Below are positions 154 through 486 of a stretch of 486 nt of DNA, piece by piece (positions within the stretch are counted from its first letter, which is position 1; each line of letters begins with the position of its first letter). The notes under the pieces are model-generated. The model was given only the letters and a program-made list of their open reading frames with translations, was not told the DNA's origin and searched no databases. A program made the position numbers and the translations under genes. The DNA comes from a phage, in the sequence record EF517055.1. One strand, written 5' to 3'.

Positions 154-423
154 ATGTCTAACGTAGCTGAAACTATCCGTCTATCCGATACAGCTGATCA
201 GTGGAACCGTCGAGTCCACATCAACGTTCGCAACGGTAAGGCGACTATGGTTTACCGCTGGAAGGACTCTAAGTCCTCTAAGAATCACACTCAGCGTATG
301 ACGTTGACAGATGAGCAAGCACTGCGTCTGGTCAATGCGCTTACCAAAGCTGTCGTGACAGCAATTCATGAAGCTAGTCGCGTCAATGAAGCTATGGCTA
401 TCCTCGACAAGATTGATAACTAA
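154..423 (+). CDS. 4.5: Small phage accessory protein, 89 aa; likely T7 gene 4.5 protein (gp4.5), reported as a Lon protease-interacting, anti-abortive-infection factor
   Basis: ATG at 154 preceded by a strong SD; open to TAA at 421..423 (270 nt including stop). Translation: MSNVAETIRLSDTADQWNRRVHINVRNGKATMVYRWKDSKSSKNHTQRMTLTDEQALRLVNALTKAVVTAIHEASRVNEAMAILDKIDN. Codon usage is typical of well-expressed enterobacterial phage genes (CGT, CTG, AAC, GAC). The size, the 19-nt spacing from the upstream stop, and the T7-type promoter about 45 nt downstream all match my recollection of T7 gene 4.5. The six-frame track extends this frame back to a GTG at 61, but that extension lacks an RBS and overlaps the upstream ORF in a different phase. 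Confidence 0.9.
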   Translation: MSNVAETIRLSDTADQWNRRVHINVRNGKATMVYRWKDSKSSKNHTQRMTLTDEQALRLVNALTKAVVTAIHEASRVNEAMAILDKIDN

Positions 424-473
424 GAGTGGTATCTTCAAGGTCGCCAAAGTGGTGACCTTCATGAATACTATTC
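424..473 (+). promoter_or_regulatory. Bipartite RNA stem-loop in the intergenic region; candidate RNase III processing site (T7 R4.7-like)
   Basis: Seen directly: upper stem 437..445 (AAGGTCGCC) pairs with 451..459 (GGTGACCTT), 9 bp with one G.U, around a 5-nt loop AAAGT (446..450). Lower stem 424..432 (GAGTGGTAT) pairs with 465..473 (AATACTATTC region), 9 bp with two G.U. The stems are separated by an asymmetric internal loop (433..436 CTTC / 460..464 CATGA). This two-stem architecture with an internal bubble is typical of T7 early and class II RNase III sites. There is no U-tract after it, so it is not an intrinsic terminator. My recollection places the T7 R4.7 cut site in the 3' side of this internal loop. 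Confidence 0.5.
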
Positions 474-486
474 GACTCACTATAAG
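468..486 (+). promoter_or_regulatory. T7-type single-subunit phage RNA polymerase promoter (phi4.7-like, class II), truncated at the window end
   Basis: CGACTCACTATA at 473..484 matches the -12..-1 core of the T7 promoter consensus (TAATACGACTCACTATAGGGAGA). The predicted +1 is about position 485 (A here; G in consensus). The -17..-13 segment (CTATT, 468..472) deviates from consensus TAATA, consistent with a weaker class II promoter. The window ends at +2, so the initially transcribed region and the downstream gene are not visible. Confidence 0.75.

Follow-up and report, generated by a model that had tools for sequence, protein, structure and literature searches.

The segment at positions 424-486 of the window (the whole 486-nt stretch of phage DNA analysed here, EF517055.1) very probably combines two elements already known from T7, one serving RNA processing and the other being a DNA promoter, which have six base pairs in common and came to overlap through history and genome compaction. 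These elements are the RNase III processing site R4.7 and the promoter phi4.7. Both have long been described and their overlap can be read from public annotation, so that the arrangement as such is already known. The more specific issues are the extent to which the hairpin explains the unusual upstream sequence of the promoter and the fate of the overlap in related phages.

The window aligns without gaps to positions 13431-13916 of the phage T7 genome (V01146; T7 position = window position + 13430), with 98.8% identity. All seven substitutions relative to the T7 reference are G:C>A:T transitions (Table 1). The lab-evolved T7 isolates K115 (AY264776) and P82 (AY264778) show the same spectrum in this region, at other positions, a likeness which suggests that the window comes from a chemically mutagenised or deaminated T7 lineage rather than from a natural relative. 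The single change in the end of gene 4.3 (1-134) is synonymous, the computed codon effects in gp4.5 are A67V and G75S, and three of the seven changes (C434T, G455A and G485A) fall within the element considered here. In the records of several relatives, the gene 4.5 product is labelled 'inhibitor of toxin/antitoxin system'. A minus-strand open reading frame of 99 aa (181-480) runs antisense to gene 4.5; it is probably spurious because the annotated T7 genes are all on the + strand.

Table 1. Coordinates of the elements in the window (window positions) and of related features in other genomes (positions in the named sequence)
Feature	Position	Strand	Basis
Gene 4.5 CDS	154..423	+	annotated T7 13584-13853; ORF listing
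R4.7 lower stem, 5' strand (GAGUGGUAU), and C433, able to pair with G463	424..433	+	fold; covariation (A2 columns 2-10)
Internal loop, 5' side, UUC (T7: CUC)	434..436	+	fold; alignment column 12
R4.7 upper stem (437-446/450-459) and apical loop (447-449)	437..459	+	fold; covariation (columns 15-24 with 33-42)
Internal loop, 3' side, CAUGA, with predicted RNase III cut U462/G463	460..464	+	presumed T7 cut coordinate; consistency with model R1
R4.7 lower stem, 3' strand (AAUACUAUUC)	465..473	+	fold; covariation (columns 48-56); phage Y R4.7 end at 472
phi4.7, class II T7 RNA polymerase promoter, -17 to +2	468..486	+	annotated T7 13915; comparison with 17 T7 promoters
C>T relative to T7	89, 198, 353, 434		alignment to V01146
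G>A relative to T7	376, 455, 485		alignment to V01146
T7 sites matched by model R1	852-902, 1427-1480, 3100-3150, 5847-5899, 6415-6452, 18501-18575, 36816-36868	+	model R1, E < 1e-3
Overlapping R site/promoter pairs of phage Y	R1.1/phi1.1A, R1.3/phi1.3, R3.8/phi3.8, R4.7/phi4.7, R6.5/phi6.5, R13/phi13		annotation
Extra 15 nt in Berlinvirus	L128 (BA14) 379-402; also L107, L109, L110, L112-L127		
Decayed phi4.7 loci	L020 (Vi06) 1270-1340; L369 (CHRF_10027) 476-560		

Folding of positions 420-486 with RNAfold yields a bipartite hairpin of two helices (dG -24.3 kcal/mol), whereas dinucleotide shuffles of the same segment average -11.1 +/- 2.7 kcal/mol and none of 200 folds as well (z = -4.86). In the lower stem, 424-432 pair with 465-473 and an additional C433-G463 pair leaves A464 bulged; the internal loop is formed by 434-436 and 460-462. 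The 5' strand (424-432) is noncoding, with its first base located directly after the TAA stop codon of gene 4.5. Two of the substitutions are located in the hairpin: C434T replaces an internal-loop base that is C in 31 of the 31 other aligned hairpins (column 12 of alignment A2), and G455A converts the conserved U441.G455 wobble (28 of 32 hairpins) to a U-A pair, which is also present in a natural hairpin (L065). The predicted stability is slightly higher in the window than in T7 (-22.9 vs -21.7 kcal/mol).

In the near-identical, T7-like Yersinia phage Y (JQ957925), the homologous 49 nt, equivalent to 424-472, are annotated as 'single-stranded RNA cleavage site; R4.7'. The locus, between genes 4.5 and 4.7, and the fold are the same, and R4.7 is named among the T7 RNase cleavage sites (PMC6938266). 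The hairpin is the known T7 RNase III processing site R4.7, which in the window differs from the T7 sequence by two transitions, C434T and G455A. Like other R sites, it has a bipartite stem, the signature of the family described below, an intercistronic position on the + strand and an annotated ortholog. The initial annotation of this DNA had read the segment as an RNA-processing hairpin, which should then fold more stably than shuffled controls, and had pointed to the coordinates of R4.7 and phi4.7 for comparison; the fold, the identity of the site and both annotated spans (R4.7 at 424-472, phi4.7 at 468-490) bear this reading out.

A stable, G+C-containing stem-loop in an intergenic position might alternatively cause T7 or E. 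coli RNA polymerase to terminate or pause rather than being a processing site. This explanation can hardly be upheld, considering that the stem is not followed by a U run and that the combination of a bipartite stem with a conserved internal loop fits the RNase III family, not the Tphi-type terminators. Furthermore, the hairpin is directly followed by a promoter, and the annotation of T7 has no terminator between TE and Tphi. Scans of the 486-nt window for intrinsic terminators and for sigma-70 promoters found none of either.

The relationship of R4.7 to the other processing sites was assessed with a covariance model (R1) that was built from R4.7 orthologs alone and run unfiltered against the complete genomes of T7 and phage Y. 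The model scores the T7 R4.7 locus at 70.4 bits and finds seven further + strand sites in T7 with E < 1e-3 (Table 1). In phage Y, it recovers the annotated sites R0.3, R1, R1.1, R1.3, R4.7 and R6.5, as well as an additional site directly upstream of gene 18.5. None of the remaining + strand matches in the two genomes has E < 0.2; R3.8 and R13, both of which are built differently, were not recovered by this model. A common signature (ACUCAAGGUC ... GGCCUUYAUGA) unites R4.7 with the annotated R sites. Given that a model of R4.7 alone also finds most of the other annotated sites, these RNase III sites are a single repeated family, defined by both sequence and structure. A scan of the 486-nt window against Rfam 15 (E <= 10) gave zero matches, and the T7 R sites appear to be without any Rfam family. 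Two looser patterns, GGCCTT...ACTCACTA run on viral contigs and AAGGYC...GRCCTT...ACTCACTA run on metagenomes, retrieved, among the matches listed, almost exclusively unrelated terminator-like hairpins and a few T7-group loci, with one usable new variant, L268.

The R sites of T7 are reportedly each cut once by E. coli RNase III, on the 3' side of the internal loop. The cut coordinates, reportedly those of Dunn and Studier (1983), are 890, 1468, 3138, 5887, 13892, 18563 and 36856 in T7. All seven coordinates map to one and the same position of model R1, position 40, which is the U of the conserved AUGA. This coincidence supports a predicted cut between U462 and G463 in the window (T7 13892).

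The locus was gathered from relatives through homologs of gp4.5 and gene 5, in a sample that spans Teseptimavirus, the IME15/Ebrios group, Berlinvirus (BA14-like), Teetrevirus (T3-like) and Przondovirus (KP32-like). The hairpin is present in nearly all relatives gathered, as 31 distinct sequences. Across the 32 distinct orthologous hairpins of alignment A2, 93.8% of the cells are paired, compared with only 32-53% after shifting the 3' partner by 1-3 columns. Changes on both sides occur in 12 of the 19 pairs, a count reached by none of 500 shuffles, and RNAalifold independently predicts the same two helices from the alignment. These compensatory changes across Studiervirinae, of the kind that the initial annotation had proposed as a check, are distributed over eight of the nine lower-stem pairs and four of the ten upper-stem pairs; because six upper-stem pairs were prescribed by the retrieval pattern, the independent evidence comes from the lower and the distal upper stem.

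The T7 records V01146 and NC_001604 both place phi4.7 at 13915, that is, position 485. In phage Y and 13a it is annotated as a 23-bp feature, with the phage Y span corresponding to 468-490; the window stops at +2 of the promoter, short of +6. The -17..-1 sequence (CTATTCGACTCACTATA) is identical to that of wild-type T7 phi4.7, an accepted promoter, and its -12..-1 part (473-484, CGACTCACTATA) is exactly the consensus. The non-consensus bases are those at -17, -16 and -13, where CTATT instead of TAATA amounts to three mismatches in five positions, with four of the five bases still A/T. With seven mismatches in all, three of them at -17..-13, phi4.7 is the most divergent of 17 T7 promoters. The -13..-17 segment is contacted by the AT-rich recognition loop of the polymerase and -5..-12 by the specificity loop (bioRxiv 10.1101/619395). 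At +1, where T7 has the initiating G, the window has A (G485A), a base that is also found at +1 of T7 phi2.5, so that the promoter may still be active; it may also be weaker than in T7, or initiate at +2 instead. The same substitution alters the first G of GGAG, the Shine-Dalgarno-like start of the transcript, which in T7 provides gene 4.7 with its ribosome-binding sequence.

The -17..-12 part of the promoter (468-473, CTATTC) coincides with the final six bases of the lower-stem 3' strand. The coordinates given for this overlap in the initial annotation are right by the fold and by the annotated phi4.7 start, and R4.7 and phi4.7 are already overlapping features in JQ957925. The overlap is confirmed as real, yet it is already annotated and ordinary for T7. 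Indeed, of the seven R sites in the RNAP-transcribed part of the phage Y genome, all but one overlap a promoter annotation (Table 1; six pairs), and the combination of an R site and a promoter has been described as common in T7 (PMC6938266). In all six pairs, the hairpin and the promoter share DNA or abut, and R4.7 shares its hairpin sequence family with R1.1, R1.3 and R6.5. The geometry differs among the pairs. By folding, the apical loop of R6.5 (phage Y 15813-15884) contains phi6.5, and phi3.8 is inside the 5' strand of R3.8; in R13 (phage Y 24475-24525), the initiation end of phi13 is the 3' strand of the stem, and the 5' strand is complementary to the promoter sequence. The other promoters are placed within the 5' strand or the apical loop or ahead of the cut, and all or part of the hairpin is therefore present in their transcripts; phi4.7, in contrast, occupies the 3' edge and its transcripts, starting at 485, carry none of it. 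The two kinds of promoter also differ in sequence, in that phi6.5 and phi13 are perfect matches to the consensus and phi4.7 is the most divergent.

Among the relatives, Teetrevirus and Przondovirus phages have the hairpin at this locus with no phage promoter behind it. The hairpin is more widespread than the promoter in this comparison, which suggests that it is probably also the older of the two. In BA14 (Berlinvirus), both elements are orthologous to those of T7 and the promoter has the same CTATTC at -17..-12; the annotated Berlinvirus phi4.7 reads CTATTCAACTCACTAATGGGAGA. The difference is that BA14 has 15 extra nt between the hairpin and TATTC, so that the upstream half of the promoter is left without pairing and the stem is closed instead by a second 3'-strand copy; MAFFT models this arrangement as a 15-nt indel. 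The 'ATGAAAACTATTC' that precedes the promoter core in BA14 is identical in 12 of 13 positions to the T7 segment formed by the internal loop and the 3' strand. It looks like a tandem duplicate of the 3' half of the hairpin, which would have uncoupled the hairpin from the promoter; the indel could be either a duplication in Berlinvirus or a deletion in the T7 lineage. In Vi06-type phages, gene 4.7 is absent and a decayed phi4.7 (e.g., CTATTTAACTCGCTGTAGGTGG) persists beside an intact, compensated hairpin. Vi06 was considered as a promoter-less ancestor and rejected, given that CHRF_10027 and Vi06 carry the decayed phi4.7 (AACTCGCTGTAGGTGG). In the metagenomic contig L268 (1572 nt), a T3-like hairpin is followed by ATTAACGACTCACTAAGGAGA (681-729), a promoter-like sequence that overlaps the 3' strand in a register different from that in T7.

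The initial annotation had further proposed that -17..-13 departs from the consensus because base pairing constrains it. The departure itself is beyond doubt, with the three mismatches being the maximum among the 17 T7 promoters, and pairing is partly supported as its origin; as a strict continuing constraint, the explanation is not supported, given the unpaired or broken positions in Berlinvirus, PSP2-22 and 13a. Taken together, pairing is more plausibly where CTATT came from historically than a strict constraint acting on it today. The stronger version, in which continuing selection for R4.7 pairing holds -17..-13 off consensus and promoter strength is traded against RNA processing, is unlikely. 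Introducing the consensus TAATA with the 5' strand unchanged does abolish the lower stem and changes the predicted energy from -21.7 to -15.4 kcal/mol; however, the partner strand (424-432) is free to adapt to any promoter sequence because it is noncoding and begins right after the stop codon, and it covaries elsewhere. The substitutions in phages that have the overlap, which provide few independent events at -17..-12 in the comparative sample, point in both directions. In NC-A (L013), -17/-16 are TC instead of CT, which turns a G-C and a G.U into a G.U and a G-C, so that both pairs with GG are kept; in IME15 (L023), the -17 pair is A-U where T7 has G-C, and a further two lower-stem pairs differ and remain paired. 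In contrast, PSP2-22 keeps TTATTC with pairing at -17/-16 only, and GTAGTC in phage 13a introduces two G.G mismatches into the stem. The decay of the promoter in Vi06-type phages, which have nevertheless kept CUAUU in the 3' strand and the stem itself, counts in favour of pairing. Against it, phi4.7 of the Berlinvirus phages (BA14, S523 and about 10 other contigs), CTATTCAACTCAC..., keeps CTATTC unpaired, 8 nt past the hairpin, even though (T/C)AATAC predominates among their other promoters. In favour of pairing, the three departures (C, T and T) are all pyrimidines of the kind usual in the hairpin family's 3' strand (model consensus uCAUUc); against it, the perfect consensus of phi6.5 and phi13 is maintained inside the R6.5 and R13 hairpins.

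At the other extreme, the upstream segment could be unrelated to the hairpin, being kept or tolerated as part of a deliberately weak class II promoter, with the overlap a by-product of packing. This possibility is somewhat unlikely. Class II promoters are often off consensus, with two mismatches at -17..-13 in phi4c and one each in phi3.8 and phi1.1A, and both the persistence of CTATTC in Berlinvirus without pairing and the routine overlap of R sites with promoters noted above would be expected under such a scenario. It does not account for the 13 nt ahead of the core (AUGAAWACUAUUC; AUGAAUACUAUUC in T7 vs AUGAAAACUAUUC in BA14), which in both phages carry the AUGA cleavage motif along with the 3'-strand pattern of the hairpin, nor for the changes in NC-A and IME15 that retain pairing.

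An origin of CTATT in the hairpin, in its fullest form, would imply that phi4.7 took over its upstream recognition half from the 3' strand of an RNase III hairpin that predates it and that the resulting dual-coding conflict was resolved differently in the lineages of Studiervirinae. This scenario is a tentative possibility, and the outcomes that it would entail are equally tentative: pairing would have been kept through pair-preserving changes in T7, NC-A and IME15, dissolved by the 15-nt tandem duplication of the 3' half of the hairpin in Berlinvirus, shifted by recombination in PSP2-22, relaxed through decay of the stem in 13a and made irrelevant to the promoter by loss of the latter in the Vi06-type phages.

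The two elements can be accommodated in a simple mechanism. RNAs that read through gene 4.5 from upstream T7 promoters would fold into the R4.7 hairpin, with its lower stem of 9-10 bp, internal loop and upper stem of 10 bp, and host RNase III would cut it once, on the 3' side of the internal loop at about U462/G463. The messages of genes 3.8-4.5, with gene 4.5 as their last gene, would then end in a 3'-terminal stem-loop, which presumably stabilises them. Located just 3' of gene 4.5, R4.7 would indeed set the 3' end of the read-through transcripts that carry this gene, as had been proposed from the sequence. The same cut would provide a processed 5' end for the message of genes 4.7 and 5, 22 nt upstream of the primary phi4.7 start. 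At phi4.7, a weak class II promoter, T7 RNA polymerase would start at 485, downstream of the hairpin, and hence the primary phi4.7 transcripts would be without the RNase III site. With R4.7 acting as RNA and phi4.7 as DNA, the signals would reside in different molecules and need no mechanical interaction. The promoter core (-11..+6) would abut a pre-existing and widely conserved hairpin whose A/U-rich 3' strand serves as the A/T-rich -17..-12 element, and this use of the strand would account for the pyrimidines at -17, -16 and -13. Today the mutual constraint is weak, given that the overlap has been undone, displaced or eroded in relatives.

For the refactoring or recoding of T7-like genomes, the arrangement means that edits at 468-473 touch an RNA processing signal and a promoter at once, and the comparative data show which changes at these positions nature tolerates. 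The differences among lineages in keeping or dissolving the overlap could serve as a modest case study of dual-coding constraint. If co-option of the hairpin by the promoter is true, the locus would represent, on a small scale, a natural experiment on how overlapping DNA and RNA signals evolve.
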